From assembly GCF_022482365.1 (NCBI RefSeq), contig NZ_JAKVPE010000001.1:2034176-2098175 (forward strand): a stretch of DNA of 64,000 nt, read 5' to 3'. The notes beneath the pieces were generated by a model that saw only the letters and a program-made list of their open reading frames with translations, did not search any database and had not been told where the DNA came from. Of this stretch, positions 13,750 through 36,647 are shown in pieces. The DNA is from Limosilactobacillus sp. (lineage in GTDB: Bacteria > Bacillota > Bacilli > Lactobacillales > Lactobacillaceae). Both the position numbers and the translations under genes were made by a program. Every line of letters begins with the position of its first letter. Positions within the stretch are counted from its first letter, which is position 1.

Positions 13750-13772
13750 TGTTTGTATGTGGAGGTTTTGTT

Positions 13773-15289: not shown

Positions 15290-15648
15290 TGGGATTTTGG
15301 AAAAGAGTATTAATTGATACCATTTTGTTCATTGCCCTGGCCGGCCTCTTTGCCGGAACGGGGATGTTCTACATCAGCAGCGCCTGGATTGCGCTGCTGG
15401 CCAGCTTTGTCTTGGCCATCTTAAACGTCTTGGTCAAGCCAATCCTGGTGATTCTTTCCCTGCCGATCAACGTCTTGACCCTCGGGCTCTTCAGCATCGT
15501 GATTAACGGGGCGATGCTGATGTTGACGTCGGCATTTATTGGTGCGGACTTCTTTCACTTCTCCTCGTTTTGGAGTGCCATGCTGATTGCCATCATCATG
15601 TCGATCTGCAACACCATTATCACTGATCACCAAGAAAATCATTATTAA
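15289..15648 (+). CDS. Phage holin family IV / YvlD-like (DUF360) membrane protein
   Basis: 119 aa with four hydrophobic helices. It keeps the position after the pspC-like gene and before hprK, as in the Bacillus yvlC-yvlD arrangement. Confidence 0.7.
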   Translation: MGFWKRVLIDTILFIALAGLFAGTGMFYISSAWIALLASFVLAILNVLVKPILVILSLPINVLTLGLFSIVINGAMLMLTSAFIGADFFHFSSFWSAMLIAIIMSICNTIITDHQENHY

Positions 15649-15663
15649 AAGGAGTGAAGCATC

Positions 15664-17438: not shown

Positions 17439-17465
17439 GATGAATTAAGGAAAGAGAGAGATTTT

Positions 17466-18482: not shown

Positions 18483-18543
18483 TTATGGTAAAATACAACC
18501 GGGTACAATGAGAGATTGAAGTTATGGAAAGGATTTTTTCGTT

Positions 18544-19458: not shown

Positions 19459-19470
19459 TTTAAACAATCA

Positions 19471-19502
19471 AGAAGTTGAGTTAATTCCCAACTTCTTTTT
19501 TT
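19471..19502 (+). terminator. Rho-independent terminator after galU
   Basis: 8-bp stem AGAAGTTG/CAACTTCT followed by T7. Confidence 0.75.
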
Positions 19503-19595
19503 ACACTTGTGCTTATAAAAAGTAAGCAAAACGATGGACATTTGGATCCGCGGCCAGTATGATATAGTCAAGAATTTATTTGTGGAGGAATCAAA

Positions 19596-20528: not shown

Positions 20529-20669
20529 GATTAAGGGTCGTGCCTGTATCGCAGCACGTCTCTTTTTTGGTACACAAGTAAAACTTTAGTAAACTTTGCT
20601 GGGAGGGCGGCAGGTCGGTGCAGAATGCGGTATACTAGTGGCAGAGAAAAATGTAAAGGGGACATCACT

Positions 20670-22397
20670 GTGAGCTGGAAAGATACTTACCAAGTATGGA
20701 AGAAACAAACTGATCTCGATCCAAAGCTGAAGCAAGAATTGGACGAATTAAGCGATGATAAGGAAATCGAAGACGCCTTTTACGGTCCGCTGTCATTTGG
20801 GACGGCCGGCATGCGGGGCTTGATGGGTCCCGGGATCAACCGGATGAACATCTACACGGTTCGGCAGGCAACTGAGGGCCTGGCAACCCTGATGGAATCA
20901 CTGGGTGACGACATCAAGGCCCGGGGTGTGGCGATCGGCTACGACTCTCGTCACAATTCCTATCAGTTTGCCCACGACTCTGCCCGGGTCCTGGGTGCTC
21001 ACGGCATTAAGGTTTACATCTACGACAACGTTCGGCCAACCCCTGAACTGTCATTTGCCGTTCGTCACAACCACACCTACGCCGGAATCATGATTACGGC
21101 GAGCCACAACCCGAAGGAATACAACGGCTACAAGATCTACGGTGAAGATGGTGGTCAGATGCCACCGAAGGAATCCGACATGATGACCGGCTACATCCGG
21201 GGCATCAAAGACATTTTCGACATCAAGCTGGCTGATGAACAAGAAATGCTCAACAGCGGCCTGGAGACGGTCATGGGTGAAGATGTCGACCACGCCTACC
21301 TGCAATTAGCCAAGGAAGTCACGGTCAACCCTGAACTGGCTAAGGAATACGGCAAGGACATGAAGTTCGTCTTCACGCCACTATGCGGGACTGGTCGGAT
21401 GCTGGGTGAACGGGCCCTGCGCCAGGCCGGCTTTACCAACTTCACGATTGAACCAACCGAAGCCCAACCAAACGGTGACTTCCCAGGTCTGGAACACCCG
21501 AACCCGGAATTCCCCGAAGCCTTTGTTCGCTCCATCAAGCTTGGCAAGCAGATCGACGCCGACGTGCTGATCGCCACCGACCCCGATGCCGACCGGCTGG
21601 GCTGCGCCGTTCGTCAGCCAAACGGTGAATACCAACTGCTGACCGGGAACCAGATCGCATCGATCATGCTTCACTACATCCTGGAAGCCCACAAGCAGGC
21701 GGGTACCCTGCCGAAGAACGCGGCGGCCGTTAAGTCGATCGTTTCCACCAACTTCGCGGCCAAGATCGCTGCGGACTACGGTGTCAAGATGATCAACGTC
21801 CTGACCGGCTTCAAGTGGATTGCCGACCAGATTCACCAGTACGAGACTGGCAAGGCTGACCACACCTTCATGTTTGGCTTCGAGGAAAGCTACGGCTACC
21901 TGATCAAGCCATTCGTTCGGGACAAGGATGCCATCCAGTCCCTGACCCTGCTGGCCGAAGTAGCGGCCTACTACCGGAGTCGCAACATGACCCTGTACGA
22001 TGGCCTGCAAGAACTCTTCAAGAAGTACGGTTACTTCCGTGAAAAGACGATTGCTAACACCTACGCCGGGGTTGACGGTCCAGCCAAGATCCAGGGCCTG
22101 ATGAAGAAGTTCCGGGAAGAGGCACCAAAGGACTTCGCTGGTCACCAGGTTGTCGTTACCGAGGACTTCTCCAAGGGCACCAAGACGACCGCCGATGGCA
22201 AGGTCAGCGAATTGGGCATTCCAGAATCCAACGTGCTGCGTTACGTTCTGGATGACGAGACCTGGATTGCCATTCGTCCATCCGGCACTGAACCAAAGCT
22301 GAAGTTCTACATCGGCACGAGCGCTGATTCCCTCGACGCCGCCAATGCCAAGCTGGCCGACTTTGAAAAGGCCCTGCAGGCATTCGCTGAAGAATAA
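20670..22397 (+). CDS. pgm: Phosphoglucomutase (alpha-D-phosphohexomutase family)
   Basis: It has the catalytic Ser loop TASHNPKEYNGYK and the Mg loop DPDADR. The start was moved to the GTG at 20670 (VSWKDTYQVW), preceded by AAAGGGGA. The upstream ATG at 20625 adds an unlikely extension. Confidence 0.9.
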   Translation: MSWKDTYQVWKKQTDLDPKLKQELDELSDDKEIEDAFYGPLSFGTAGMRGLMGPGINRMNIYTVRQATEGLATLMESLGDDIKARGVAIGYDSRHNSYQFAHDSARVLGAHGIKVYIYDNVRPTPELSFAVRHNHTYAGIMITASHNPKEYNGYKIYGEDGGQMPPKESDMMTGYIRGIKDIFDIKLADEQEMLNSGLETVMGEDVDHAYLQLAKEVTVNPELAKEYGKDMKFVFTPLCGTGRMLGERALRQAGFTNFTIEPTEAQPNGDFPGLEHPNPEFPEAFVRSIKLGKQIDADVLIATDPDADRLGCAVRQPNGEYQLLTGNQIASIMLHYILEAHKQAGTLPKNAAAVKSIVSTNFAAKIAADYGVKMINVLTGFKWIADQIHQYETGKADHTFMFGFEESYGYLIKPFVRDKDAIQSLTLLAEVAAYYRSRNMTLYDGLQELFKKYGYFREKTIANTYAGVDGPAKIQGLMKKFREEAPKDFAGHQVVVTEDFSKGTKTTADGKVSELGIPESNVLRYVLDDETWIAIRPSGTEPKLKFYIGTSADSLDAANAKLADFEKALQAFAEE

Positions 22398-22468: not shown

Positions 22469-22502
22469 TTAATGCTCGAAATGATTTAGTGGATGTAAGC
22501 CG

Positions 22503-23453
22503 TCAATCATCGCTGCTCGTTGTCGACTGGGACGGTGATTGTTCATCGTTGGCTTTCAAATCGCTAATCGGGGTCCAGTGGAGCTGCTTCAAAAGCAGTG
22601 GCTGCTTAAACTTAGTGTCCTGGTCGGCGAAGAGATTGTTTTGGGACAGGGCATCCCGGTTGGTGTTCATCACGTCATTGAGGTATTGATCGGCGAAGTA
22701 GTGAATGGGAACGCCAAGGATGCTGAGCAGGGAAATGACCGGCTCGATGTATTCGTAGGGGTGGGCGATTGTCGTGGCTGACGAGCGACTCTGCGAATCG
22801 AGGTGGACCTCGAACTGGTAGAGGTTGGCGTTGACGAAGGTGATCCGCTTGGCGTTAAAGTAGGGCTTCCACATCGTGTAGACATCGTCAACCACCTGAT
22901 TCTCCGGGAAGCGAACGTGATCAAAGACCCGCGTGCGAAAAAGCTTGACGCAAGGGGTCCAAAAGACCTGCCGGATGTGGGGGAAGAGGTCGCCGAACCA
23001 TTCCTTGGGGGTGTACCAGGGTTTGATTTTCACCTTGTCGATATTCTTGCTGCCAAAGTCGTAGTAGTGATCGTGGTCGGAGTTATAGCCATGAACGTAG
23101 CCGACCGCGATGTCGCTGTTCGTCTCCTGCATTCGCTGGTAGAGGGTGGTCAGGAAAATTGACTCGAACTGGTCATCACCGTCCAGAAAGGTAAACAGGG
23201 ACGTGTCGACCAGGTCCAGGGCGGAGTTGCGGTTGGCGGAGATGCCACGGTGGGGGAAGCGGAAGTATTTAATTCGTTTGTCCCTGGCCGCGTAGAATTT
23301 GCAAATTGCCGGGGACTCGTCCGTCGAGCTGTCGTCCACTAGCAGGAGTCGCCAATTCGTGTAGGTCTGCTTAATCACCGATTCAATGCACTTGGCCAGG
23401 TACTTGGCCTCGTTGTAGAAGGGCACGACAACGGTGATGGTTTCATCATTCAT
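22503..23453 (-). CDS. Family 2 glycosyltransferase
   Basis: The start was moved to MNDETITVVVPFYNE (ATG is the complement of 23451-23453). It has DDSSTD and DGDD motifs. The start overlaps the upstream GT2 stop by 8 nt (ATGAATGA). Confidence 0.85.
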   Translation of the reverse strand: MNDETITVVVPFYNEAKYLAKCIESVIKQTYTNWRLLLVDDSSTDESPAICKFYAARDKRIKYFRFPHRGISANRNSALDLVDTSLFTFLDGDDQFESIFLTTLYQRMQETNSDIAVGYVHGYNSDHDHYYDFGSKNIDKVKIKPWYTPKEWFGDLFPHIRQVFWTPCVKLFRTRVFDHVRFPENQVVDDVYTMWKPYFNAKRITFVNANLYQFEVHLDSQSRSSATTIAHPYEYIEPVISLLSILGVPIHYFADQYLNDVMNTNRDALSQNNLFADQDTKFKQPLLLKQLHWTPISDLKANDEQSPSQSTTSSDD

Positions 23454-24333
23454 CGGCGTCCCCCTCTTCAAGCCGGTCCAGAATGCTCAGCTTCTCGACG
23501 GCATCCTGGTAGGCCCAGAGTTGGTTGCCATCCAGGGCGTGATCCTTGATGAACTGCAGCTGCTGACGGTAGCAATTGGCAATCGCCTGGGTATCGGCAC
23601 CGAGAATGTTCAGAATTGCCAGGGCCGCTTCCAGACCGGTTACGGACAGGTTGAACACCTTCTTTTGCTGGAGACTGCCGGGCCGGTTAATACGGCGGCA
23701 GTACAGTGGGTCCGTCAAGTAGGCGATGCGCTGGGCGTTCAGGTAGAGCTTCCAGACGGTCATATCGTCCGGGAAGTTGTTGTCCGGGAACATGACGCTA
23801 TCGAAGACGGCCCGCCGATAGAGCTTGCCGGTTGAAGTCCGGTGGAGCTGATTGATCCAGTTGGGCTCATAGTCGGCGTACCGGAACCATTCCAGGGGAG
23901 TATGGGTTCCCGCCAGTGAGTTTTCGACCGTCGTGTCATGGTAAAGGGTGGCCTGGCGCGGATCGTCGAACTGGGTGAAGTTGGTAATGGCGATATTCGC
24001 CTGGTCGTCCTCAAGCGCCCGGGTCGTTTGCGCCAGAAAATCTGGGTCGAGGAGATCATCGCCGTGCACGAAGGTAATCAGATCGCCGGTTGCCAGCTGC
24101 AGGCCGAGGTTGTAAGCCGCCCCGAGCCCAGCGTGATGCTGGCTGATGAAGCGAACCCGGTGGTCGGCCAGGGCGTAACGAGCAGCCACCGCCAGCGTGC
24201 CGTCGGTGGACTGGTCATCGACGACGATTACTTCGAGGTTGTGATAGGACTGGTTAAGGATGCTATCGAGGCAGGTTGCCAGGTAGTCCTTGAGGTTATA
24301 TGCGGGAACAATTACAGAAACTTTTTCAGACAT
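23446..24333 (-). CDS. Family 2 glycosyltransferase
   Basis: The start was moved to MSEKVSVIVPAYN (complement of 24331-24333), with RBS AAGGAAGG. It has DDQSTD and HGDD motifs. It is a paralogue of the downstream GT2 and shares its C-terminal region architecture. Confidence 0.85.
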   Translation of the reverse strand: MSEKVSVIVPAYNLKDYLATCLDSILNQSYHNLEVIVVDDQSTDGTLAVAARYALADHRVRFISQHHAGLGAAYNLGLQLATGDLITFVHGDDLLDPDFLAQTTRALEDDQANIAITNFTQFDDPRQATLYHDTTVENSLAGTHTPLEWFRYADYEPNWINQLHRTSTGKLYRRAVFDSVMFPDNNFPDDMTVWKLYLNAQRIAYLTDPLYCRRINRPGSLQQKKVFNLSVTGLEAALAILNILGADTQAIANCYRQQLQFIKDHALDGNQLWAYQDAVEKLSILDRLEEGDADE

Positions 24334-24554
24334 GCGCTTTTCCTTCCTTGCTTGATAAAAACGAGATAATTTATCTGGTGATTTATAAAACGACAATGAA
24401 GCACTATTTGATGACACCCAGGAGTTAATGCTCCCGGCAACAAATTGCCACCTCCCTCACTTTAATTTGATTTTACAACATTTATTAGCAAAATTGCGCT
24501 CAATTATTAAAACACTTATAATTAAATTAAATCTCAACTAGAGGGGGTGGCAAA

Positions 24555-25541
24555 ATGGCGTTTTATATCACACAGATATACGGTGGTGGCAGCCGGGATG
24601 ACCAGCTGCAGGCCCGCGTCGCGCAGGCGGCCGCGTCCATTGGGATTTCGACAATCGGCATTCGTCAGTGTCAGCAGGAGCGGCTTGCAACTGAGCTGTT
24701 AGCTGCTCTGCGACCACTCAGTGCGGGGGATGGGCTGATTGTGCAGCTGCCGCTGGCGAGCGATCAGGTTGTCGGCGAGACTCTGCTGGCCGTCCTCGAC
24801 AGCCTTGACAAAGACCAAGCGAGTATCCCCCTGGTGCTTTTCCTGCACCGGTTGCTGTTTAGCCGGCCGGGCCTGCTGGAACAAAGTCGTGCCTTGCTTA
24901 AGCGCTCGAATGCCGTGATTGTCCCTGACTCGCCGGCTGGCAGACGCGTGGCCCAGCTGGACGTAACTGACCGGCCAGTCATCACTTGCCAGCTCCTGGA
25001 TGCCGTCAGCAACTTGAGCTTTTCCCAGCTTCCGACATTTAGTCGGCACCTCAACGTCTGTGATCCACCGACGCCAGCGGCCCTTAATTCTTGGGCAGTT
25101 GCCGCAGTGCCAGAGCATGTTTACAATGCGGGCTTTGCGGTTGATAACCCGGCTTGCATTGACCGGGGACAGGCGGAGAACGACGCCCTTATCCTTGCCC
25201 TGCATCAGGAGGGTGGCTTTGGCCTGCTGCTGGATGACGATGCCTTGCAAATGAATCTGGGGAGTTTTGTTGCCGCTAGCTTGCCCCTGGTGGTTGCCAA
25301 ATCAAATCCCCAGTCGGCCTGGGTTTACCGCTATGGCCTGGGTCACGTTGTTGAATCGCCTGCTGGTGCCGCCCGGTGCATTCGGCAAACGCCGGCGGCC
25401 ATTTACGAGGCGATGGCCCGTCGCGTTGAGCAGTTTGGTCGATTGAGCCGCCGGGGTTATTTCCTACGGCGCGCCCTGCTTGAGGGGGAATACCGGGCAC
25501 TATTAGATGGACAAGGCCTTGCGAAGGGGGCGGAGCAATGA
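24555..25541 (+). CDS. Divergent Gtf3/GtfC (Nss)-like protein, possibly non-catalytic
   Basis: 328 aa, collinear with the next ORF. Shared blocks are MxxxIT at the N-terminus, GDGLIVQLPL vs GDVVIIQSPLW, EGGFGLLL vs LGGYGLLW, LGSFVAASLPLVV vs LGAYLSAGLPVIA, and GYFLRRALLE vs GLFSKRVLTA. The conserved FVHDVEPLEF block is replaced by FLHRLLFS. The protein is rich in Ala, Leu and Arg. Confidence 0.6.
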   Translation: MAFYITQIYGGGSRDDQLQARVAQAAASIGISTIGIRQCQQERLATELLAALRPLSAGDGLIVQLPLASDQVVGETLLAVLDSLDKDQASIPLVLFLHRLLFSRPGLLEQSRALLKRSNAVIVPDSPAGRRVAQLDVTDRPVITCQLLDAVSNLSFSQLPTFSRHLNVCDPPTPAALNSWAVAAVPEHVYNAGFAVDNPACIDRGQAENDALILALHQEGGFGLLLDDDALQMNLGSFVAASLPLVVAKSNPQSAWVYRYGLGHVVESPAGAARCIRQTPAAIYEAMARRVEQFGRLSRRGYFLRRALLEGEYRALLDGQGLAKGAEQ

Positions 25542-26551
25542 CCGTTTGGATAACGAGCATGAAGGGGATGGCGGGAGCAGCCCAATTGGGTCAAGATCTT
25601 GAAGCGCAGGTTGGCCGTGAGCTTGGCTTTCGTGAGCTGAGCTTCCCGGTGAGCTTTGAAGACGTTAAGGCCGATGGTCAGGAAGAGCTCCGGTCAATAT
25701 CCGCCAAGGTCCACGCTGGGGACGTGGTGATTATTCAGTCCCCGCTGTGGTTTCAATTTGCGTTTGAACAGTCCTTGGTTCGCCTTTTGAAAAAGCAAGG
25801 GGTTAGAATCGTCTATTTTGTCCACGACGTCGAGCCACTTGAATTTGGCGCGACCGAGCAAAAGGAGCTGACAACCTGGATTCATCTTTATAATCAGGCG
25901 ACCGTAATGATTTTGCCCAACCGCCACACGGCAAAATGCCTCCGCGGTTATGGGCTGATCATTCCGTCAAGCCAGATTGTTTACCAGGAGGTTTGGGACA
26001 ACCGGGTTGAGTTTGACCGGCTGGACCAACCAATTAGCAAGTACACGCCGATTATCCAGTTCGCCGGTGACCGGGACAAGTTCGATTTTATCGATACCTG
26101 GCCGAGCGCTGAGGTGCCCCTGGTGAACTATTCCCGGACGCGGGTTCGGAGCAAGAATGTTTTTAACGGCAATTTTTTGCCCAACGATATTCTAGTGCTG
26201 AAGATGCATAACCTTGGGGGCTACGGCCTTTTGTGGGAAGCCGACGAGCGCTGGTATAACTACATGAAAATCAACACCTCCTTCAAGTTGGGGGCCTACC
26301 TCAGCGCAGGGTTGCCGGTGATCGCGCATCGAGGAGTTGCGCAGGAAAAACTGATCACCCGTGAACACCTGGGCATCGTGGCGGATTCAATTAGCGATGC
26401 GATTGATCAGGTGATGAAATTGCCGCCGCAGCAGTACTTCCGTTTAGCCCAAAACGCCTGGCGCTTAGGGCGGCTGACGCGTCAGGGACTCTTTTCAAAG
26501 CGGGTCCTCACCGCAGCTGTTTTCCGTGCGCTGGCACCGTGGACAGTCTGA
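25538..26551 (+). CDS. gtfC: Accessory Sec system glycosyltransferase, Gtf3/GtfC (Nss) family
   Basis: 337 aa. Its block pattern (GDVVIIQSPLW, FVHDVEPLEF, GGYGLLW, FKLGAYLSAGLPVI, GLFSKRVLTAAVF) matches what I recall of streptococcal Gtf3. It has an ATGA overlap with the upstream paralogue. Confidence 0.75.
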   Translation: MTVWITSMKGMAGAAQLGQDLEAQVGRELGFRELSFPVSFEDVKADGQEELRSISAKVHAGDVVIIQSPLWFQFAFEQSLVRLLKKQGVRIVYFVHDVEPLEFGATEQKELTTWIHLYNQATVMILPNRHTAKCLRGYGLIIPSSQIVYQEVWDNRVEFDRLDQPISKYTPIIQFAGDRDKFDFIDTWPSAEVPLVNYSRTRVRSKNVFNGNFLPNDILVLKMHNLGGYGLLWEADERWYNYMKINTSFKLGAYLSAGLPVIAHRGVAQEKLITREHLGIVADSISDAIDQVMKLPPQQYFRLAQNAWRLGRLTRQGLFSKRVLTAAVFRALAPWTV

Positions 26552-26661
26552 CAAGTCATGGGATTAGTGTCAAAAACATTTAGAAAAGTGTACGCTGGCT
26601 ACGGAAAATAGGATACAATGTTATTAAGAATAGAAAATAATTTATATTTGGGGTGAGGGGT

Positions 26662-27878
26662 ATGAAAAAAATAATAGTACTTTCGACCGACATGACCTTT
26701 CTCATGCCAGCGGAAACGCTGATCAAGTCCATCGCTTGTCACAATGACAATGTTAAAATCTACGTCCTGAACGAGGACCTTCCACAAGAATGGTTTGCCA
26801 ATATTAATCGGCGTCTGCACTTCTTGGACATCCAGGTCGTTGACGTGAAGTACGACCCGACGCTCCTGGACAACGTGGTGGTCTCCAATCAGTTCCTTAC
26901 CAAGATGACGTTCGGTCGTTTTCTGATCCCCAAGCTCATCCCAGAAGACGGGTCATCTACATGGATGTCGACATGGTTGTCGACGGGTCCCTGGACGGAC
27001 TCTATCAGTACCCGCTCCATGGTCACACCCTTGGTGCCGTCCTGACCCCGATGGATCCGAACGTCTTTAACGCGGGCCTTTTACTGATAGATAATACCCG
27101 ATTGCGGGCCACTAACTTCACGGCTGAAATGCTGGAGAAGGGAACGGTTAGCCACAAGAAGGACGACCAGTCAATTCTCAACGAGGTCTTCAAGGACGAC
27201 TTCGAAAAATTACCCGGGAAATATAATGTCCAAATCGGTGACGACCTTTCCGTGGTCTACAATAACGAATACGACCGTTTCTCGAAGAACCTAGAGGAGT
27301 CGCGCCCCTTTACGATCATTCATTACACGGGGGTCAACAAGCCCTGGTGGCTGATGAGCGCAATGCGGCTCCGTGAAAAGTGGTGGGAATACCGTAACCT
27401 TGATTATCCCGAACTCATCGCTCAGCGGCGGGTAGCGATGCTCAGAAAGCAGGCCACCCAGCGCCCGCAGTTTTTCACCTTTACCTATACCCAGGATCTC
27501 AGTCAATTGGAAGCACTGGTGAAGGCCTTTCCAGACTGTGACTTCAATATTGCCGCCCCGACAATGGTGGGCCCGGTCCTGCAGGTGATGCTGCGCTACC
27601 CGAACGTGAGAATCCACGAGCAGGTTAACAAGTACATCTTAAAGGAAAACATCGACAAGACGACGATTTACCTGGACATCAATGCACAGCCGCGCGATAA
27701 ACAAAACATGGAGATCATGCAAGAAATGCTCAATCGCCAGGTGCCGATCCTGACCTTTGCCGATGTCAAGACGGATATGCTTGAGAGCGAACCGGACTAC
27801 ACGGTTATTCCGGCGGGGGACGTTGATAAGATGGTCGCTACCATTCGACAGCTTTTGGCGGCCAGACCAAATGATTAG
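26662..27878 (+). pseudogene. Family 8 glycosyltransferase (Gly-like), interrupted by a 1-nt frameshift near 26949-26951
   Basis: ORF 26653..27045 reads ...FGRFLIPKLIPED and then goes out of frame. The next frame continues RVIYMDVDMVVDGSLDGLY (GT8 DxD motif) ...FNAGLLLIDN...HYTGVNKPWW through 27878. The gacgggtc context implies one missing nucleotide. Confidence 0.75.
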
Positions 27879-27886
27879 CTTCGATC

Positions 27887-27918
27887 AAAAGAGGCGGGGG
27901 ACAACCCAGCCTCTTTTT
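27887..27918 (+). terminator. Rho-independent terminator after the GT8 gene
   Basis: Stem AAAAGAGGC/GCCTCTTTT with a T-run. Confidence 0.7.
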
Positions 27919-28153
27919 AACTATCAATCGATAAGAAAAAAACTGCAAATGGCCATTTTCCAGAGCAAAGTATGGAAGGGCGACTGTGATTGCAATGCAA
28001 TAAATTAACCGCGCACGGCGGGCAAAAATGTTCATGAATGTTTCGATAATACTGAATTATAAGAATATAAGTGCTAAAATGAATTTGTTTATAAGCTTAA
28101 AAGTTTTTAACGGTTTAAGCTGAATGAAAATTGATGTTGGGGGAGAATAAGCA

Positions 28154-29347
28154 ATGAAAAAGCCCTATCAACTAAATATTCTCCGCGACCGCGTGGCCTT
28201 CAGCCTCTTTGTGCTGCTGATATATATCTTGGGAAGCAGTATTCCCCTGCCCTTTGTCCGGATGACGGAAATGTACCGGAACATGCTGGCTAAGACCCCA
28301 ATCGGCCTGATGAGTTTCATGGGCGGGGCCAACTTGCAGACGCTCTCGCTGTTTTCCGTGGGACTGAACCCGTTGATGATCGCGATGATGATTGTCCAGC
28401 TGATGTCGATGACCAAGCTCTTCTGGACCGATTCGCTCTCCCAGCACCAGACGATGATCGTGCAGCAGTGGCTGATGCTGATCCTGGCGACCGTGCAGGC
28501 GATTGCGATCACCCTGACCTTCCATTTGACCGCCAACTATCGGCAGGCGACCGCGGTGGTGATCATCCTGGTGGCCGGCAGTATGTTGGTGGTTTGGCTG
28601 GGCTTCATGAACATGCAGTTTGGCATCGGGGGAACGATGACCCTGATCCTGTTCAACATGATTTCCGGTTCAATCCAGCCGCTGGTGCGCTCGATCAAAC
28701 GAATGCAGGTCATTCCACACGCTGAGGTCTGGCTGGCGATGCTGATTCTGGTTGGCCTGGTGGAGATTATCTTCTGGGTTGGCTTCAACCGGGCCTACTA
28801 CCGGGCCTCGATGATTGACGTCACCCTCAAGAGTTCGGTGAAACCGCTGGCCTTTCCAATCGCACTTAACCTCGGTGGGATGATGACCTACATGATGGGG
28901 ATGGCCATCCTGACTTTGCCAATGATCCTGGCCCAGACGACGAGTTGGCGGGAAAAGATCAACGATTGGCACTTTCAGGTCGTCTTCTGTATGGTAGTTA
29001 CTTTTCTGTTGTTCTACTTCTTTGCCTATCTGCAGCTCAACCCTAAGGACCAGGCAAAGGAACTGCGAAACAAGAACAACTATATCCTCGACGTCCGGCC
29101 CGGGAAGCCGACGTCCCGCTTTATTCGCAATCACCTGCTATGGCTCAGTCTGCCCGGCGCCCTGCTCAACGGTGCCCAGCTGACCCTCGGCCTGGTGGGT
29201 TCGCAATTCTTGGGGCGGTACACGGCCTTTGCGCTGATTCCGCTGGACGTGGTGATGATCGTGATGTTCATGAACCTGATTAAGGACCAGCTTCTGGTAC
29301 TGGTGATTCCGCATCGCTACGAGAAATTGATGAAAAAAGAGGGGTAG
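28154..29347 (+). CDS. secY2: Accessory Sec system translocase SecY2
   Basis: 397 aa with about 10 TM segments and a SecY-like N-terminus (LFVLLIYILGSSIPLPFV). It is followed by asp1-asp2-asp3-secA2 in the canonical order. Confidence 0.85.
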   Translation: MKKPYQLNILRDRVAFSLFVLLIYILGSSIPLPFVRMTEMYRNMLAKTPIGLMSFMGGANLQTLSLFSVGLNPLMIAMMIVQLMSMTKLFWTDSLSQHQTMIVQQWLMLILATVQAIAITLTFHLTANYRQATAVVIILVAGSMLVVWLGFMNMQFGIGGTMTLILFNMISGSIQPLVRSIKRMQVIPHAEVWLAMLILVGLVEIIFWVGFNRAYYRASMIDVTLKSSVKPLAFPIALNLGGMMTYMMGMAILTLPMILAQTTSWREKINDWHFQVVFCMVVTFLLFYFFAYLQLNPKDQAKELRNKNNYILDVRPGKPTSRFIRNHLLWLSLPGALLNGAQLTLGLVGSQFLGRYTAFALIPLDVVMIVMFMNLIKDQLLVLVIPHRYEKLMKKEG

Positions 29348-29350
29348 AGC

Positions 29351-30871
29351 ATGGATTACATGGTGCCAGCATGGCATGAGTTATTTATTGATTGGGCATA
29401 CAACGTTCCACACCTTGATTTTGATGACGCGACGGGCCAACTCCGGCTGCTTCAGGATAACAAGCAGCCAGTGGGCCTTTTTCTGCTTAATTACCAGCCC
29501 AATTTATTGGAGCGCCTGGGGCAGATGGCCCTGAGCCCGAATTCCATTTTGTCGGTATTTGACTACATTCAAGACGTCCATCACCAGGAGGGGCAGAGCC
29601 TGAGCTACAAGGACTTTGCATGGCCAGCTGGAGCCTACCTCAAGTTTTCCTCCTTCCACATTCAGGTAATAGTCAACAAGAAGATGTACGCCCAGGTGAT
29701 CTTTAGCGTGTCCGGTCGAATCATCCTGGTGCAATATTACGACGAAAATGAGCAGCTAACTAAGCAGCTGCGCATCGATAGCCGGGGCTTCATTTCACGG
29801 GAGGAAGACTTCCGCGGCGACAAGGAGACCCAGCACATTTACTTTGACGAGCAGGGTAACTGGCGGATCAACCATAACCTGGAAAGCGATCAGGTAATCG
29901 TCAACCCGATGTTCAAGGACCAGTTTGCCCACGGCGAGTACGACCACCTGGATGAGCTGATCAGGGAGGTGGCCTTAACCGACCTGATGCCGCAGGTTTA
30001 TAAGGACGGCGGGCGCATGGTCATCGCATTGGATGACAAAATGCCAGTGGCCCCGGACCTCTTTAGCACCGTGCCGACGGTCTACTCAATCAGCCAGTGG
30101 CACCCGTGCAAGAAGATCTTAGCCGGCCTGCAAAATCCAGATCTGGTAACAATGGTGGCGGACCGTGAGAAGACGGCCGAGAGCGTTCAGGAGCTTCTCC
30201 ACCTCGATAAGCCAGTCACCACCATTCCGATCTTTTATTCTCAGTTTCGGCTGGGGCACAGTCAGCGGATCGCGCAGCAGCGGATCGCCATTTTTAACGA
30301 AAACATGACGGGCCAGGAGCTGATGGACCTGGTCAATCGGCTCTACAGCCGCCTATTAAAAAACTACAAGAAGGAGCAGCTCCTCTTCCTAAACTACAGC
30401 CAGGAAAAGGAGCTGGAGGCCAAGCAGATTATCAACCAACTGTGTGCCGACCATCCCGGCGAATTCCGGCTGCATAAGGACCATCCTGCCATGATCGAGG
30501 TTGATCTCGAGGGAGCCAAGAAACTGCCGGAGCTCTACCTCAAGTCAGTCCGGCTGCCCAGCGTGGGGGATGCGATGACGGTGCTTGATAAGGTGCGGTT
30601 GATGATCGACCTTGGTGAAGAGCCGGACGAATTCCTGCAGATGGCGTCCGTCAGCACCGGGATTCCCCGTCTGCAGCGCCACGCCACGGAGGAGGTTCAT
30701 GACCATCAAAACGGACTGGTGGTTACCGACAATGACCAGGTGCTGGCGGGGATCAGCTACTACCTGGATCACTTAAAGCACTGGAATGAGGCCCTAGCTA
30801 GTGACGTTCAAATCATGAACACCCACTCCAGCCAGCGGCTCTTCCAAAAATGGCAAGAACTATGGAAGTAA
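29351..30871 (+). CDS. asp1: Accessory Sec system protein Asp1
   Basis: 506 aa. Its N-terminus MDYMVPAWHE resembles the conserved Asp1 start (M.YFIPAWY). Its position is directly after secY2. Confidence 0.75.
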   Translation: MDYMVPAWHELFIDWAYNVPHLDFDDATGQLRLLQDNKQPVGLFLLNYQPNLLERLGQMALSPNSILSVFDYIQDVHHQEGQSLSYKDFAWPAGAYLKFSSFHIQVIVNKKMYAQVIFSVSGRIILVQYYDENEQLTKQLRIDSRGFISREEDFRGDKETQHIYFDEQGNWRINHNLESDQVIVNPMFKDQFAHGEYDHLDELIREVALTDLMPQVYKDGGRMVIALDDKMPVAPDLFSTVPTVYSISQWHPCKKILAGLQNPDLVTMVADREKTAESVQELLHLDKPVTTIPIFYSQFRLGHSQRIAQQRIAIFNENMTGQELMDLVNRLYSRLLKNYKKEQLLFLNYSQEKELEAKQIINQLCADHPGEFRLHKDHPAMIEVDLEGAKKLPELYLKSVRLPSVGDAMTVLDKVRLMIDLGEEPDEFLQMASVSTGIPRLQRHATEEVHDHQNGLVVTDNDQVLAGISYYLDHLKHWNEALASDVQIMNTHSSQRLFQKWQELWK

Positions 30872-30883
30872 GGTGAGAAGACG

Positions 30884-32392
30884 ATGGCAACCAACGTTTT
30901 ACAATTGGGCGGCCGTGATGATTGGTCGGAAAAGTACAAGATGTCCGATGAGATTACCTGGAACTATAATAATTTTCCGCCCAAGAAGCCGGCAATCTAC
31001 TCGGTCGTAATCATTGACGGGGCGGTTAACCTGACACCAAAAAACTGGGAAAAATTGATTTGGGCTTCCACCCCCTATGCGGTCTTCTACCGTCCCGGAA
31101 CGGAAAAGCAACTGGGAGCGGCCGGTCAGCGCTTCATCAAGCTGGATGCCGGCAAGCCATTCACCTGCTCACCGGAACAGATGATTAAGGACATCTCGGA
31201 CAAGTACTACTTCGGCCAGACCGGGATCCGGGTCTTGCCCAACAACATCAACCTCAACCAGGAGCTGTTTGACGAACTGAACTACCCGGACGGCGGTCAC
31301 CTGCAGCTGAGCGTGGATAGTGACGAATGGCAGACCTTTGGCCACTACCGCAACCAGCTCTATGTTGACCCCTACCGGCGGCTGCGGATCTGGCTGGAGG
31401 CGAGCCGGGAGCCCGGCGTCGAGCTCCGAATCGTGGTCAATGAACTGGTTGTTGGCGATCGTCAGTGGACCTTTCCGGTGACGACTAAGGACGCTGAGGA
31501 AATCATTCCCACCAAGCTGCAAACGGAGGGCCAGTTCGTCAGCGTCAGCCTGCAGATGCGGGGACACGGCAAGTTTACCCTAGGGCCTTTCCACTACAGT
31601 TGGGCACGATACGGGGCCGGTATCTTTATCGTCGGCGCCAAGCGGCTGATCGAGCCGCACAACGGCGAGCAGGTGGCCTACTACCTTAATCCCGGCAACC
31701 TCAAGCCGCCATTAAACGTCTACTTTTCCGGTGCCCGGAGTGCCGAGGGTTTTGAAGCCTACCCACTTTTTCGGAGCTTCAAGGCGCCGAGCCTGCTCTT
31801 TACGGATCCGCGGCTCGAAATCGGCCAGTTCTACACCGGTGACTACATGGAGCCGGCCATCAAGCGGGTCATCATGCGTTCCCTGCTCAAGCTCGGGATG
31901 ACCACTGACGACCTGGTTATGTGCGGAGTGTCAATGGGGACTTACCCGGCCATCAAGCTCGGCAGCGAATTAGGAGCACACGCCATCGTGGTAGCCAAGG
32001 CGCTGACCAACCTCGGCTACCTGGCCGAGCGGGGAAGGCTGCAGCGGCCAGACGAATTCGAGACCATCTTCGATATCGACCGGCAGCTAACCCAGACGGA
32101 CTTTCCGAAAGGCCTCCACGAGATTGACCAAAAGTTCTGGCGCCAGTTCGATGAGGACAACCTGGCCCGGACCCGGCTCTTTATCACCCACATGTACCAG
32201 GATGACTACGATGACCGGGCGGTTGCCAAGATTAAATCCTCAAACGCCATCCAGCACGTCAAGGAGTTTGCCACCAAGGGCTATCCCGGCCACCACAACG
32301 ACAACACCGATGGCACGGTTAGCTGGATGATCTACCGGATCCGTCAGGTGATGCGTGATGACTTTGGCAATTACCAGGAGGATGATCAATAA
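30884..32392 (+). CDS. asp2: Accessory Sec system protein Asp2 (esterase/acetyltransferase-type GxSxG)
   Basis: 502 aa. The C-terminal alpha/beta-hydrolase-like region has the nucleophile motif GVSMGT. Its position is between asp1 and asp3. Confidence 0.75.
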   Translation: MATNVLQLGGRDDWSEKYKMSDEITWNYNNFPPKKPAIYSVVIIDGAVNLTPKNWEKLIWASTPYAVFYRPGTEKQLGAAGQRFIKLDAGKPFTCSPEQMIKDISDKYYFGQTGIRVLPNNINLNQELFDELNYPDGGHLQLSVDSDEWQTFGHYRNQLYVDPYRRLRIWLEASREPGVELRIVVNELVVGDRQWTFPVTTKDAEEIIPTKLQTEGQFVSVSLQMRGHGKFTLGPFHYSWARYGAGIFIVGAKRLIEPHNGEQVAYYLNPGNLKPPLNVYFSGARSAEGFEAYPLFRSFKAPSLLFTDPRLEIGQFYTGDYMEPAIKRVIMRSLLKLGMTTDDLVMCGVSMGTYPAIKLGSELGAHAIVVAKALTNLGYLAERGRLQRPDEFETIFDIDRQLTQTDFPKGLHEIDQKFWRQFDEDNLARTRLFITHMYQDDYDDRAVAKIKSSNAIQHVKEFATKGYPGHHNDNTDGTVSWMIYRIRQVMRDDFGNYQEDDQ

Positions 32393-33297
32393 TGAAGCAA
32401 AACATTATTAACCAAATCTACTGGGGCCCCGGATATCAGGATGGCTATCACTTTGGCTCCCGGATTAAGATCCGAAAAAATGGCCACGTCAGCTTTGACA
32501 ATAAGCTAATGGCGTCCGGAAAGATCATCATGTCCTGGCAGTCGAAGCTTAACTACCAGTTTTCCAAAATGGTGCCCCAGCTCCCGGTACTTGCCGTTGG
32601 TCGGCGGTATCGGCTCTACCTCAAGGGACAGGAAAAACCGGCCGGGACGATGATTACCCGACTGATCTTTCGCAACATTCAGGGGGACGAGATTAAGCAG
32701 CTTAACCTGGAGGGCCACGACAACGAGTTTGTCTTTCCTGAAGGGACGGTGGATTACGAGCTGCAACTGATTAACGCTGGCTGCACCCACCTGGAGTTTG
32801 ACCGGATTGAAATCTGCACGGCCGACCTGCCCAAGGACGTCCACGATGATCTCTGGCTGCAAGACCCAATTACCGACTACCCGGACAAACCGGTCCACCT
32901 GCTGGTAATGTCGGCGGGGAAGCGGGCCAAACGTGACTTTCCGTGGCTCAAGCGCTTGGCGGGTGACCTGGCAGTGCAGATCATGCTGGTTTCCTGGCAG
33001 CACCGTGACGACGTCGGTCAGGACATTACCGATCTGCTGAAGGAAAACCGGGCCTACAACACCCACATTATTTCCTGTGAGCCGCGCTTTGATCGGGCGG
33101 TCATCGATGCCTGCAACTCGTTTCCGGCCTTCCAGGGGTTGGTAACCAACCGCGCCTACTTGGCGGATCGGCCACAGAACATTTACCGTTACGTTTGGCG
33201 GCCGAACGTGCACCAGCTGAAGGAAGCCGTCTCGGAACCGGACTGGGTCAGCCTGTTTTCGGTTATTCATGCCATCTGGGGAGGTGATCAAGGATGA
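32392..33297 (+). CDS. asp3: Accessory Sec system protein Asp3 with a C-terminal extension of about 150 aa
   Basis: 301 aa. It overlaps the asp2 stop by 1 nt and the secA2 start by 4 nt (ATGA). Its size and position suggest the N-terminal half is the Asp3 module. The C-terminal half (from about VHLLVMSAGKRAKRDF) has no family I recognise. Confidence 0.6.
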   Translation: MKQNIINQIYWGPGYQDGYHFGSRIKIRKNGHVSFDNKLMASGKIIMSWQSKLNYQFSKMVPQLPVLAVGRRYRLYLKGQEKPAGTMITRLIFRNIQGDEIKQLNLEGHDNEFVFPEGTVDYELQLINAGCTHLEFDRIEICTADLPKDVHDDLWLQDPITDYPDKPVHLLVMSAGKRAKRDFPWLKRLAGDLAVQIMLVSWQHRDDVGQDITDLLKENRAYNTHIISCEPRFDRAVIDACNSFPAFQGLVTNRAYLADRPQNIYRYVWRPNVHQLKEAVSEPDWVSLFSVIHAIWGGDQG

Positions 33298-33869
33298 TTC
33301 TTGATAAAGTTGACCTCCACCATGTCCGGGCGATCCTGGGAAAGGTCAATGCCTGGGCACCCAAGATGCGGAAGATGTCAGATGCGGAGCTGCGCAACCA
33401 AACCAACCTTTTGCGTGACCAGCTCAAAGGCGGCAAGACCGTCGACGACGTGCTTCCGCAGGCCTTCGCCACGATTCGGGAAGCCGATTACCGGATTCTG
33501 GGAATGTTTCCCTACGACGTTCAGGTAATGGGCGCAATTATCCTCAACCAGGGCTACATTGCCGAGATGAAGACCGGGGAGGGGAAGACCCTGATGGCGA
33601 CCATGGCGATCTACTTAAACGCCCTGGAAGGCAAGGGCTCGATGCTGGTGACGCCAAACGGCTACCTGGCATCCCGGGATGAGGCCCAGCTGGCCCCGGT
33701 CTACGAATGGCTGGGGATGACGGTGAGCCTCGGTTTCGACGAGAAGATCAAGCACCCGAAGCCGGCCCTGAAACGCAAGTGGTACAACGCGGACATCACC
33801 TATACCACCGCCAGTACCCTGGCCTTTGACTACCTGTTCAACAACCTGGCGGATAGCCTGGAGGGCTAG
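33294..33869 (+). pseudogene. secA2: secA2 remnant: only the N-terminal 191 codons of the accessory Sec ATPase
   Basis: The sequence MILDKVDLHHVRAILGKVN...[24 protein letters not shown] (Walker A)...TASTLAFDYLFNNLADSLEG stops at a TAG. Full-length SecA proteins such as the 787-aa SecA at 11313 continue for about 600 more residues. No frame downstream continues the homology. Confidence 0.8.
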
Positions 33870-33960
33870 TTAAACAAGGTCTCTTCTATCGAATGATTTA
33901 TCAAATATCAGAAACTCAACCGGACAAAATGGCAATTGCGTGAAAGCGCTAAAATTTGGT

Positions 33961-33970
33961 GGGGGGGGGG
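33961..33970. repeat. G10 homopolymer tract
   Basis: Ten consecutive G residues in an AT-rich intergenic region, 206 nt upstream of the adhesin TTG start. Confidence 0.95.
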
Positions 33971-34101
33971 TAGAAAGCCACCCCTAAGCGAGTTTGTTTT
34001 ATAAAATTTTATGTAAAAAATATAATTTAAAATATAAAACTTTAAATTAAAAATTGTTTATATCATTGTGAAACAATGTTCGGGTTTGGCCATGCTAGCT
34101 C

Positions 34102-34130
34102 TTGCTCAATGCGGTTTTGCTCAATAAAAT
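34102..34130 (+). promoter_or_regulatory. Putative sigma-A promoter of the adhesin gene
   Basis: TTGCTC (34102-34107), 17-nt spacer, TAAAAT (34125-34130), preceded by a very AT-rich tract. Confidence 0.4.
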
Positions 34131-34175
34131 ATGATAATTGTAAAACGAATTATCATTGATAAAGGAGCAAGAACA

Positions 34176-36338
34176 TTGGAAAAGATTGACGAAATAAAAC
34201 ATTATAAGTTGTACAAAGCCGGTAAATTGTGGCTTACCATGGCGATTGCGACGTTCTCACTCGGGGTAATGGTTTCGTCAGTCAACGCTGACCAAGTAAG
34301 TGCTAATAGTAGTGCAAGTGCTGTTAGTGAACGGGTTGTATCGAGCAGTGCCGCTGTAAATTCGTCCGCAGCCGTTCCAGCAACTTCTGCTGGATCAAAG
34401 AGCACAACACAACAAAGTCTAGCACCCGACCAGCCAGGTGCTTCACAGGCCACTACTAGTGCACAATCAGCAGCTAAGGTTGACAGTTCAGCTGCTAAAT
34501 CATCCGCTAACCAAGCTACTAAAGATAATACGAAGGCTAACAGCAGTACGAAAAAGGAAGCAGCCCTTCCAGCACTGCCTGACTTGGATAACAATCTGTT
34601 GTCCAAGGCCGGATCATTCCATATTTTTGCAAATGAGGTTCAAATTGGCGCTGATGTTAACGGTAACATTGCCACCCAGCATTACATCAGCGGTAACGAA
34701 TTTGGAACACGAAATGAGTCTCACAACTACACCAAGGGAGACGTTTACTACATTGAAACTGTTGACCAAATGGGTTCCAACGCCTTTCGAAACAGTGAAA
34801 ACTATGTTGTCTTTGGCGAAGACACAAAAGTTGAAATAAAAAATGGTCAGGTTTTTGTAAATGGGACCCGAATGGATCACCTGAAGGCTAGTGCTGTTTA
34901 TAAGAAGAGTGGCTACATTGATTTTCAAAAAGAATTCGACAACCTGACATCTCTGGCCAATTATTATGCACGGCAGAAACAGACTGATGGTGTGAAGGTC
35001 AACTTTGAGAATAACAATAATAATTATATTGATGTAAGTAATGTTGCTGCTGGTACAAAGATTATCTACGTTACTGTGCCGACTGGTTGTTTGACATCCT
35101 CCCAGCCACTGACTATCAAGGGGTTAAGTTCTTCAGAAGACGGTCCTGTTGTGGTTATGAATGTCAATGGTTCCGTTAATTTTAATACTCAAACAAAGCT
35201 GGAGTATGATGATGGCCAAACCATTTCTCCAAATGAAGGACATAGTAAGCCAAACCATGTGCTTTGGAACTTTGGTGCTAATGGTGGAACGTTAAATATT
35301 AACAGTGGCTATCTTTTAGGCAGTGTTCTGAATCCTCAGGGTGAAGTAAACGCAAACGTTAACGTCGATGGAAATTTGATTGCCAACCGGGTTAACATTA
35401 GCGGTGGTGAATCTCACCGTTGGGACCTCCGGGGTGGAACGTATGTAGATATCCACCAACCAAGTACACCAAGCCAGAGCAGTCAAGTAACACAGCCAAG
35501 TCAAACTAGTCAAACGACGCAGCCAACACAGCCAAGTCAAACCAGTCAAACGACGCAGCCAACACAGCCGAGTCAGACTAGTCAAACGACGCAGCCAACG
35601 CAGCCGAGTCAAACTAGTCAAACGACGCAGCCAACACAGCCGAGTCAGACTAGTCAAACGACGCAGCCAACACAGCCGAGTCAGACTAGTCAAACGACGC
35701 AGCCAACACAGCCAAGTCAAACTAGTCAAACGACGCAGCCAACGCAGCCAAGTCAAACCAGTCAAACGACGCAGCCAACGCAGCCGAGTCAGACTAGTCA
35801 AACGACGCAGCCAACACAGCCGAGTCAAACTAGTCAAACGACGCAGCCAACACAGCCGAGTCAGACTAGTCAAACGACGCAGCCAACACAGCCGAGTCAG
35901 ACTAGTCAAACGACGCAGCCAACACAGCCAAGTCAAACCAGTCAAACGACGCAGTCAACGTCACCTGCTTACCCGGTAATCCCAGATAATCCGAAGTCAA
36001 GCACGCCAACGCAACCAAACCAGACGCAGCCGACCTCAATTCAGTCGACGACTCCTGCTCAATCACAGCAGCCGACTGAACCAGCAACGTCTGAAACGAA
36101 CCAGCCAACCCAACCGGTTCACCAAACTGACCAGCAGCAACCAAGCTCACCAGTTGAGACCCAAGCGGTGAAGACCACTCCTGCCCAGTCACAGCAAGCA
36201 CAAAGTCAGTCTGCTACCGCTACTGCTGCTGGACTGCCACAGACCGGTAACCAGAACGAAACTGCAGTAACCGTTCTTGGCCTCCTTACCGCCAGTTTCG
36301 GAATGCTTTTCGGCCTGAAGAAGCGTCATTTTGAATAA
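34176..36338 (+). CDS. LPXTG-anchored surface adhesin with a KxYKxGKxW signal peptide and SRRP-like modular layout
   Basis: TTG start at 34176, 8 nt after AAAGGAG. The signal region is KHYKLYKAGKLW...VNA/DQVSA. It is followed by about 100 aa rich in Ser and Ala. A non-repeat region of about 300 aa then follows (IFANEVQIGADVNGNIATQHY, possibly beta-solenoid or choice-of-anchor-A-like). Next come 13 copies of QPSQTSQTTQPT and a Q/P/S/T-rich stalk. The C-terminus is LPQTG plus a hydrophobic segment plus KKRHFE. Confidence 0.85.
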   Translation: MEKIDEIKHYKLYKAGKLWLTMAIATFSLGVMVSSVNADQVSANSSASAVSERVVSSSAAVNSSAAVPATSAGSKSTTQQSLAPDQPGASQATTSAQSAAKVDSSAAKSSANQATKDNTKANSSTKKEAALPALPDLDNNLLSKAGSFHIFANEVQIGADVNGNIATQHYISGNEFGTRNESHNYTKGDVYYIETVDQMGSNAFRNSENYVVFGEDTKVEIKNGQVFVNGTRMDHLKASAVYKKSGYIDFQKEFDNLTSLANYYARQKQTDGVKVNFENNNNNYIDVSNVAAGTKIIYVTVPTGCLTSSQPLTIKGLSSSEDGPVVVMNVNGSVNFNTQTKLEYDDGQTISPNEGHSKPNHVLWNFGANGGTLNINSGYLLGSVLNPQGEVNANVNVDGNLIANRVNISGGESHRWDLRGGTYVDIHQPSTPSQSSQVTQPSQTSQTTQPTQPSQTSQTTQPTQPSQTSQTTQPTQPSQTSQTTQPTQPSQTSQTTQPTQPSQTSQTTQPTQPSQTSQTTQPTQPSQTSQTTQPTQPSQTSQTTQPTQPSQTSQTTQPTQPSQTSQTTQPTQPSQTSQTTQPTQPSQTSQTTQSTSPAYPVIPDNPKSSTPTQPNQTQPTSIQSTTPAQSQQPTEPATSETNQPTQPVHQTDQQQPSSPVETQAVKTTPAQSQQAQSQSATATAAGLPQTGNQNETAVTVLGLLTASFGMLFGLKKRHFE
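35493..35960 (+). repeat. Coding tandem repeat, 13 x 36 bp (QPSQTSQTTQPT)
   Basis: 468 bp is exactly 13 units of cagccaagtcaaactagtcaaacgacgcagccaaca. Units differ only at synonymous positions (ccaagt/ccgagt, caaact/caaacc/cagact, ccaaca/ccaacg). The last unit is degenerate (QST). Confidence 0.95.
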
Positions 36339-36356
36339 TTTTAGCTAGCCCGAAAA

Positions 36357-36383
36357 AGTCGCAATTACCGTTGCGGCTTTTTC
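36357..36383 (+). terminator. Rho-independent terminator after the adhesin gene
   Basis: Stem AGTCGCAA/TTGCGGCT (one G-U pair) followed by T5. Confidence 0.75.
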
Positions 36384-36454
36384 CTTTTCCGGTGTGCCAA
36401 TCAATAGACGAATGCATGTTTGGGTGATAAACTAAATTGTAATTAAATAAAAGG

Positions 36455-36614: not shown

Positions 36615-36647
36615 GCTTGTATACGGAAAAATAAGGGGGATTTGTCA

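Follow-up and report, generated by a model that had tools for sequence, protein, structure and literature searches.

In the accessory Sec (aSec) systems that have been studied, GtfA and GtfB add the priming N-acetylglucosamine (GlcNAc), other transferases extend it, and SecA2, SecY2 and Asp1-3 are each needed for export. Here, we describe the locus of such a system between the core genes pgm and uvrB in a 64,000-nucleotide stretch of Limosilactobacillus sp. (NCBI RefSeq assembly GCF_022482365.1, contig NZ_JAKVPE010000001.1, positions 2,034,176 to 2,098,175; the whole stretch is referred to as the window). The locus is very probably a recent loss-of-function deletion allele of a complete aSec (SecA2/SecY2) glycoprotein-export island, the intact version of which is present in almost identical sister strains.

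The SecA2/SecY2 clusters for serine-rich repeat proteins (SRRPs) of L. reuteri 100-23 and ATCC 53608 (PMC6291802, PMC5866549) stem from the same genus and represent the same machinery. The SRRP glycoprotein band is gone in L. reuteri asp2 and gtfB mutants (PMC6291802), and secA2 mutants have been reported to lose adhesion (PMC6973325). Partial aSec sets and pseudo-SRRPs occur in L. gasseri, L. rhamnosus, L. murinus, L. nagelii and L. mucosae and have been read as decay (PMC6973325). What we describe is strain-level gene decay in a known system, and partial aSec clusters of lactobacilli are already on record.

Results

The window differs from an intact allele by one large deletion and two small changes

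The intact allele was traced by an exact look-up of the Asp3 protein across public assemblies, which yielded 22 contigs. Several of these carry the complete pgm-uvrB locus, and one (L108) covers it as a whole. The intact island occupies about 23 kb between pgm and uvrB and starts with genes for glycosyltransferases (GT) and export components in the order GT2, GT2, Gtf3, Gtf3, GT8, secY2, asp1, asp2, asp3, secA2, gtfA and gtfB, followed by a 64-aa membrane open reading frame (ORF), another Gtf3 gene, a GNAT gene, a 239-aa ORF, an SdgA/B-like GT4 gene, the gene for an LPQTG adhesin and finally uvrB. GT8, SecA2, GtfA and GtfB of the intact allele comprise 405, 785, 509 and 443 aa, respectively, the third Gtf3-like protein 336 aa, the GNAT acetyltransferase 142 aa and GT4 506 aa. 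SecA2 reaches 996 bits with TIGR03714 (cut-off 930), GtfA 685 bits with TIGR02918 (cut-off 575) and GtfB 475 bits with TIGR02919 (cut-off 338).

When compared by BLAST, the window follows the intact allele over 11,473 bp (99.98% identity), interrupted by a single mismatch and a single gap. A clean gap of 9,041 bp then follows (11474-20514 of the intact contig L006), after which identity resumes. The breakpoints overlap by a single nucleotide, and apart from this microhomology long direct repeats are absent from the deletion ends. Through the deletion, codon 190 of secA2 now adjoins sequence located 267 bp ahead of the adhesin ORF, and L-E-D-Q is changed to L-E-G-stop, such that the remnant consists of 190 native codons, one glycine codon and TAG (191-codon ORF). 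Over its native codons, it matches residues 1-190 of the 785-aa sister-strain SecA2 at 100% identity. Walker A (MKTGEGKT) is kept. The full-length protein has Walker B (VIDEVD) shortly after the breakpoint, and this motif is gone together with every domain that follows. Lost are not only secA2 codons 191-785, i.e. three quarters of the gene, and gtfA and gtfB, but also the 64-aa membrane ORF, the third Gtf3-like gene, the GNAT gene, the 239-aa ORF and the SdgA/B-like GT4 gene. Neither gtfA nor gtfB nor a second secA2 was detected in the 64-kb window by tblastn with SecA2, GtfA and GtfB of the intact allele; besides the stub, the search hit the canonical secA alone.

The single gap in the aligned 11,473 bp is a 1-bp deletion in the GT8 gene (one C at position 26950; GACCGGG in the intact allele versus GACGGG in the window). 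It is located just before the DxD motif and splits the gene into ORFs at 26653-27045 and 26961-27878. The only mismatch is a single-nucleotide polymorphism (SNP) at 23640, which causes an A260T missense change in the second GT2 enzyme.

A preliminary description, made from the letters of the window, had listed the genes between pgm and uvrB, the stop after 191 codons of secA2, the GT8 frameshift, the lack of gtfA and gtfB, the integrity of secY2 and asp1-3 and the lack of an integrase or insertion sequence; ORF mapping, family scans and tblastn bear out every one of these points, and all listed genes are found at the positions given. Its list of losses was right for the motor and the priming pair and understated in that the five further deleted genes were missed.

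Two of the deleted ORFs deserve mention in their own right. The 64-aa ORF (L006 16134-16328) encodes a single-pass membrane protein directly after gtfB without a family match; it has a 56% identical counterpart in a lineage whose SecA2 is 76% identical (contig L110, ENA GAOR21-1 scaffold_238). The 239-aa ORF (L006 17967-18686) is conserved and specifies a protein that belongs to no family and has membrane helices at its N-terminus and a tail rich in Ser. A homologue search with the 191-aa SecA2 stub returned short fragments only and no full-length relative. An 81% identical SecA2 fragment of 189 aa (P0001) is encoded on a 711-bp contig that is labelled 'Bartonella sp. CL63NXGY' at NCBI and most likely represents contamination or mislabelling from a Lactobacillaceae source.

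The deletion haplotype occurs in independent samples and is young

The 191-aa SecA2 stub was found exactly on six contigs. Assemblies of four independent samples share the junction string, namely JGI 3300051650, SRR35183702, SRR16484666 and SRR16484662, where it is located on contigs L001, L002, L003 and L112, with L003 stemming from SRR16484666 and L112 from SRR16484662. Junction, GT8 indel and SNP occur together wherever a contig covers them, and all intact contigs are free of them. The deletion is of single origin. In two metagenome-assembled genomes (MAGs) at NCBI, the protein accessions for Asp3 and the adhesin are consecutive, which is consistent with a secA2 remnant that has been annotated without a protein. 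A 111-kb metagenome contig (L012; JGI 3300044537, Ga0455766_000099) stops exactly at the left breakpoint (11473, equivalent to window position 33864). Such an assembly branch point is expected if that sample contains the intact as well as the deleted allele.

Comparison with an intact-allele contig reveals a single SNP within 12.8 kb upstream of the island, and on the downstream side the window shows no SNP over 12.3 kb relative to a contig from an intact-locus sample. The region from secY2 to asp3 is 100% identical between the haplotypes (secY2 versus the intact contig L009). We infer from these identities that the deletion is very recent and that secY2, asp1, asp2 and asp3 are still intact as too little time has elapsed; because of this recency, their integrity requires no functional explanation. 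A very recent decay had been one of the options offered in the preliminary description, which had also proposed to compare the pgm-uvrB interval across strains. The intact locus of the sister contigs supports this option down to the single base pair, as the difference comes down to three events, the loss of 9,041 bp, the loss of 1 bp and the SNP.

Two further indications of decay were considered and dropped. An enrichment of mutations in the island (two small changes in 11.5 kb as compared to one in 25 kb of core flanks) rests on too few numbers. A 1-bp deletion in asp3 of L003 (window position 32882), first taken as continued decay, was withdrawn and is judged a probable read error, because L112 from the same run series exhibits six scattered 1-bp G/C deletions in a pattern typical of read errors. 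Such probable homopolymer errors in L112 and L003 are also the source of artificially split genes in public protein sets (P0277-P0281, P0284).

Gene content of the island

The features of the locus are collected in Table 1. All four of secY2, asp1, asp2 and asp3 exceed the curated NCBIfam cut-offs, and Asp2 carries the GxSxG motif (GVSMG at residue 348). Both Gtf3-like genes have PF26334 and PF26337 (Gtf3_N/C) in the precomputed annotation. According to the ORF map, no transposase or integrase is encoded between pgm and uvrB.

Table 1. Coordinates of the aSec island, its boundaries and related features in the window.
Feature	Position	Strand	Evidence
pgm (phosphoglucomutase), core gene, left edge of island	20625..22397	+	PF02878, PF02879, PF02880 and PF00408 matches
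GT2 glycosyltransferase, intact	22503..23471	-	PF00535 126 bits; same as intact alleles
GT2 glycosyltransferase, intact, with haplotype-linked missense SNP 23640 (A260T)	23446..24417	-	PF00535 129 bits
Gtf3/GtfC-like glycosyltransferase, more divergent of the two	24555..25541	+	NF007325 81.6 bits, below cut-off
Gtf3/GtfC-like glycosyltransferase	25538..26551	+	NF007325 235 bits, below equivalog cut-off
GT8 pseudogene	26662..27878	+	PF01501 divided between two ORFs
secY2, intact	28154..29347	+	TIGR02920 275.6 bits, cut-off 249.6
asp1, intact	29351..30871	+	TIGR03713 343.6 bits, cut-off 136.1
asp2, intact	30884..32392	+	TIGR03712 403.2 bits, cut-off 210.75
asp3, intact, 301 aa	32392..33297	+	TIGR03711 120.7 bits, cut-off 67.25
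secA2 remnant	33294..33869	+	PF07517 (SecA DEAD domain) positions 11-189 of 290
Deletion junction	33863..33865		BLAST and direct reading of both breakpoints
Poly-G tract	33961..33970		upstream of the adhesin promoter-like site
Promoter-like site (TTTATA, 17 nt, TATAAT)	33998..34026	+	consensus match only
Adhesin gene, likely aSec substrate, 735 aa	34131..36338	+	PF19258 47.9 bits, PF00746 25.7 bits
36-bp tandem units (13) coding for Thr/Gln/Ser/Pro-rich stalk	35489..35959	+	Tandem Repeats Finder
uvrB, core gene, right edge of island	36642..38690	+	gene call and Pfam domains
Canonical secA, 787 aa, intact, outside the island	11313..13676	+	all SecA domains; 42% identity to SecA2 (tblastn)

The Asp3 model comprises 135 positions and covers residues 7-141 only. 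The C-terminal extension of 160 aa (residues 142-301, window 32815-33297) has no Pfam match; it is also present in the 307-aa Asp3 homologue encoded on L110 (47% identical). In GT8, the C-terminal stretch of about 140 residues (window 27440-27878) matches positions 276-410 of the GtfB model TIGR02919 with 49 bits, which suggests that a GtfB-like substrate-binding module is joined to the GT8 catalytic domain. An Rfam scan of the window gave a single match, a tRNA gene at 48762-48833 on the minus strand.

The adhesin next to the deletion

The preliminary description had recommended a genome-wide search for a serine-rich repeat protein and had overlooked a 735-aa adhesin that is encoded within the very interval it described (34131-36338). 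The ORF opens with ATG at 34131; the probable start is TTG at 34176, which follows an AAAGGAG site. The protein consists of a KxYKxGKxW signal, a Ser/Ala-rich segment, a non-repeat region of 300 aa, PTQPSQTSQTTQ repeats and an LPQTG anchor. In addition to PF19258 (47.9 bits), the signal matches TIGR03715 (35.1 bits), and the signal peptide is short, comprising about 40 aa with one glycine in its hydrophobic core. Residues 41-140 consist of 23% Ser and 23% Ala and resemble SRR1. The stalk is formed by 13 copies of PTQPSQTSQTTQ (period 36, 13.1 copies and 94% matches in Tandem Repeats Finder) with 32% Thr, 32% Gln, 18% Ser and 16% Pro and not by Ser-X dipeptides. LPQTG is followed by a hydrophobic tail and KKRHFE, and PF00746 is matched with 25.7 bits (cut-off 20).

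Both haplotypes encode the same adhesin except for the number of repeats, with variants of 735, 723 and 699 aa; the adhesin on the intact-locus contig L108 equals the protein of the window less one repeat unit. The promoter-like site, a consensus match, is located downstream of the deletion and kept in both alleles. A run of ten G lies 28 bp upstream of its -35 hexamer. Contig L009 has nine G at this site, and the tract could be phase-variable or a sequencing artefact.

Homologues of the non-repeat region (41-64% identity, E values from 1e-51 to 1e-92) are found in Lactobacillus, Leuconostoc, Pediococcus and Limosilactobacillus, where they carry PF20597 and are called choice-of-anchor A or collagen-binding proteins. 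Neither PF20597 nor any other Pfam or NCBIfam domain was matched directly in this region, be it as part of the adhesin or alone. An AlphaFold model of the region (AF2, 24 sequences) predicts a beta-helix with a predicted local distance difference test score (pLDDT) of 89 and a predicted template modelling score (pTM) of 0.89. The nearest solved folds retrieved with Foldseek are DUF3494 ice-binding proteins (probability 1.0, TM 0.35-0.48); the L. reuteri SRRP binding region, a PelC-like solenoid (5NXK), gave no match in Foldseek (E about 1.4). A PDB sequence search with the adhesin returned matches to low-complexity repeats only and did not connect it to this L. reuteri region.

Judged from its sequence and the model, the adhesin is SRRP-like in architecture and atypical with regard to the predicted fold of the binding region, the shortness of the signal and the stalk rich in Thr and Gln. 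It adjoins the aSec genes downstream in both alleles, and orthologues occur in fragmented form at the same site in species lacking the aSec genes. The adhesin is likely the substrate of the island's aSec system.

The pgm-uvrB site in related species

UvrB from the window and from L. kribbianus YH-lim2214 are 99% identical at the amino acid level, and the uvrB-uvrA DNA is 93.3% identical. By these values the host is close to L. kribbianus, the named species nearest to it. Species such as L. antri, L. oris and L. panis have an empty interval between pgm and uvrB; in the first two, the distance between these genes is about 160 bp. None of the species representatives has secY2 or asp genes at this site, and a scan with Asp2 did not reveal a close copy of the island in the species-representative genomes.

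The site of L. kribbianus YH-lim2214 is free of secY2, asp, secA2 and gtfA. It contains an ORF of 673 aa (L014 2826-4847) composed of an adhesin-like N-terminal half with a signal peptide and a C-terminal part of about 330 residues homologous to GtfB. The GtfB part is 56% identical, and the adhesin N-terminus is an unrelated one. A Gtf3-like gene follows and then a GT4 gene encoding a protein 90% identical to the GT4 deleted from the window. The L. kribbianus locus appears to be the outcome of a separate erosion of the same island. L. pontis UMB0683 retains GT4 only. The adhesin orthologue alone is retained upstream of uvrB in L. pontis DSM 8475 (L088 7768-9835), L. galli (L022 337-2154) and an uncultured Limosilactobacillus (L104 9050-11117), and in each of these three cases in-frame stops or frameshifts divide it into three ORFs. 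The remnant of an ISL3 transposase lies beside the orthologue in L088 and L104; the window has none.

In the L110 lineage, the gene order is asp3-secA2-gtfA-gtfB-63aa-Gtf3-GNAT-243aa. An HTH/SocA_Panacea gene and a 161-aa ORF (36-2484) take the place of secY2-asp1-asp2 on this contig, which ends 2.4 kb upstream. The export genes of this lineage may be located elsewhere or may have been lost. From the whole of these comparisons we infer that erosion has recurred in this clade and that the window captures it at an early stage, with loss, rather than piecemeal gain, as the presumed direction.

Discussion

The genetic difference between the two haplotypes can be accounted for in few steps. One illegitimate-recombination event with 1-nt microhomology removed 9,041 bp and at the same time created an immediate stop, with the 1-bp deletion in GT8 and the missense SNP being linked to it in this haplotype. 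Without GtfA and GtfB, the priming GlcNAc would not be added to the adhesin and the remaining extension glycosyltransferases would be left without an acceptor. The SecA2 remnant lacks Walker B, the preprotein cross-linking domain (PPXD), the second nucleotide-binding domain (NBD2) and the helical scaffold, and SecY2 and Asp1-3 would thus be deprived of their motor. By analogy with the roles of GtfA/GtfB and SecA2 in the systems studied, the island of the window should be unable to glycosylate or export its adhesin and is presumably dead for both functions. The adhesin product would either be lost or leak out in unglycosylated form via the general Sec pathway. With its short, Gly-poor signal, unglycosylated adhesin might indeed leave the cell via SecA/SecYEG, as glycosylation is said to hinder canonical Sec export (PMC6973325) and changes of signal-peptide glycines send GspB to the general Sec pathway (PMC5578698).

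Three points weigh against a plain loss of function. Several samples contain the deletion haplotype, as do the longest assemblies, and it is not obviously purged, such that it could be neutral or even favoured. With the asp3 frameshift of L003 probably being a read error, there is no solid sign of ongoing decay. Finally, the search for a second secA2/gtfAB locus covered the 64-kb window. A rival reading is an adaptive loss, in which the unglycosylated adhesin is rerouted to general Sec or non-display itself is favoured, resulting in two surface morphs. The adhesin gene and its promoter-like site are unaltered by the deletion, the signal has the properties just described, and homologues of the adhesin binding region with KxYKxGKxW signals exist in Leuconostoc, Pediococcus and L. 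helveticus. However, the adhesin orthologues of relatives lacking aSec are broken by stops or frameshifts, which argues against a lasting use of the adhesin in the absence of the system; we consider adaptive loss unlikely. Both haplotypes are present in several samples, and the end of L012 at the left breakpoint looks as if both alleles co-exist. That the deletion is a standing polymorphism between a glycosylated, aSec-exported adhesin and a naked form that takes the general Sec route or is not displayed at all is, in our view, distinctly doubtful.

Continued function of the retained genes was the other option raised at the outset, with the missing parts being supplied by a second secA2-gtfA-gtfB set elsewhere or by the canonical SecA. 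Some bacteria possess two aSec clusters (PMC6973325), and the intactness of secY2-asp3 together with the 64-kb scope of the search could be counted in favour of complementation in trans. Yet, the age of the deletion fully accounts for this intactness, the linked GT8 frameshift fits a loss of function better than continued use, no paralogue of gtfA, gtfB or secA2 turned up in the 64 kb, and none was flagged among the 120 closest SecA2 homologues (at least 54% identity), the latter being a weak argument as one sequence was described per cluster. Complementation in trans is therefore very improbable. The same applies to an even greater degree to the canonical SecA as the motor that drives unglycosylated adhesin through the accessory channel. 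SecA, SecY2 and Asp1-3 are all intact, but in studied systems deletion of secA2 abolishes aSec transport despite the presence of SecA (PMC5578698; PMC6973325), the two motor proteins share just 42% identity, and we found no precedent for SecA driving SecY2/Asp1-3. A misassembly at position 33870, which the preliminary description had itself named as a possible source of the truncation, can practically be dismissed. The junction does adjoin an AT-rich, poly-G-containing stretch at which other assemblies break, but it recurs unchanged in a 2.3-Mb contig from JGI and in three Logan assemblies obtained independently from different runs, always together with the GT8 indel. A recent loss-of-function deletion remains by far the best explanation.

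A practical consequence concerns annotation and the choice of strains, as strains of this Limosilactobacillus that seem aSec-positive by their secY2/asp content are in fact devoid of motor and primer. Furthermore, the intact and the deleted haplotype, three events apart in a near-identical background, constitute a natural near-isogenic pair. This pair could serve to test the role of aSec glycosylation and export in adhesion and gut colonisation as well as the general Sec route for an unglycosylated SRRP-like adhesin. Should the haplotypes after all represent a polymorphism, they would correspond to two surface morphs of one near-clonal gut symbiont within communities and would parallel in nature what engineering achieved with the rerouting of GspB, and the repeated erosion in the L. 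kribbianus/L. pontis clade would reflect recurrent selection against glycoprotein display.

Comparison with known systems

The intact allele and L. reuteri have secY2, asp1-3, secA2, gtfA, gtfB and GtfC/Gtf3-type extension enzymes in common, the SecA2 proteins are about 62% identical, and in L. reuteri, too, an LPXTG adhesin with a KxYKxGKxW signal is encoded adjacently. The window differs by the lack of secA2 codons 191-785, gtfA and gtfB. The binding region of its adhesin is predicted to form a beta-helix like that of DUF3494/ice-binding proteins and not a PelC-like solenoid (5NXK), the stalk is built from PTQPSQTSQTTQ units instead of Ser-X dipeptides, and the island has additional GT2, GT8, GNAT and SdgA/B-like GT4 genes.

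The core order secY2-asp1-asp2-asp3-secA2-gtfA-gtfB is the same as in the GspB/Hsa system of S. gordonii, the Asp2 of which likewise exhibits the GxSxG esterase/acetyltransferase motif. By position and size, the 64-aa ORF after gtfB presumably takes the place of asp4 in the S. gordonii locus. Compared to S. gordonii, Asp3 of the window is twice as long, the adhesin signal peptide is shorter (about 40 versus about 90 aa), and the motor and priming genes are deleted.

The deleted GT4 protein of 506 aa aligns end to end with the models of SdgB and SdgA, glycosyltransferases of staphylococcal SD-repeat adhesins (217 and 214 bits, respectively). These scores are far below the cut-offs of 800 bits, and the protein is not an SdgA/SdgB equivalog. 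Homologues of this GT4 are encoded next to other surface proteins at the pgm-uvrB site of L. kribbianus, L. pontis and a Limosilactobacillus MAG. In contrast to the partial aSec clusters catalogued for lactobacilli, the progenitor of the window's locus is available at 99.98% identity, the loss can be broken down to three events, and the adhesin gene is whole.

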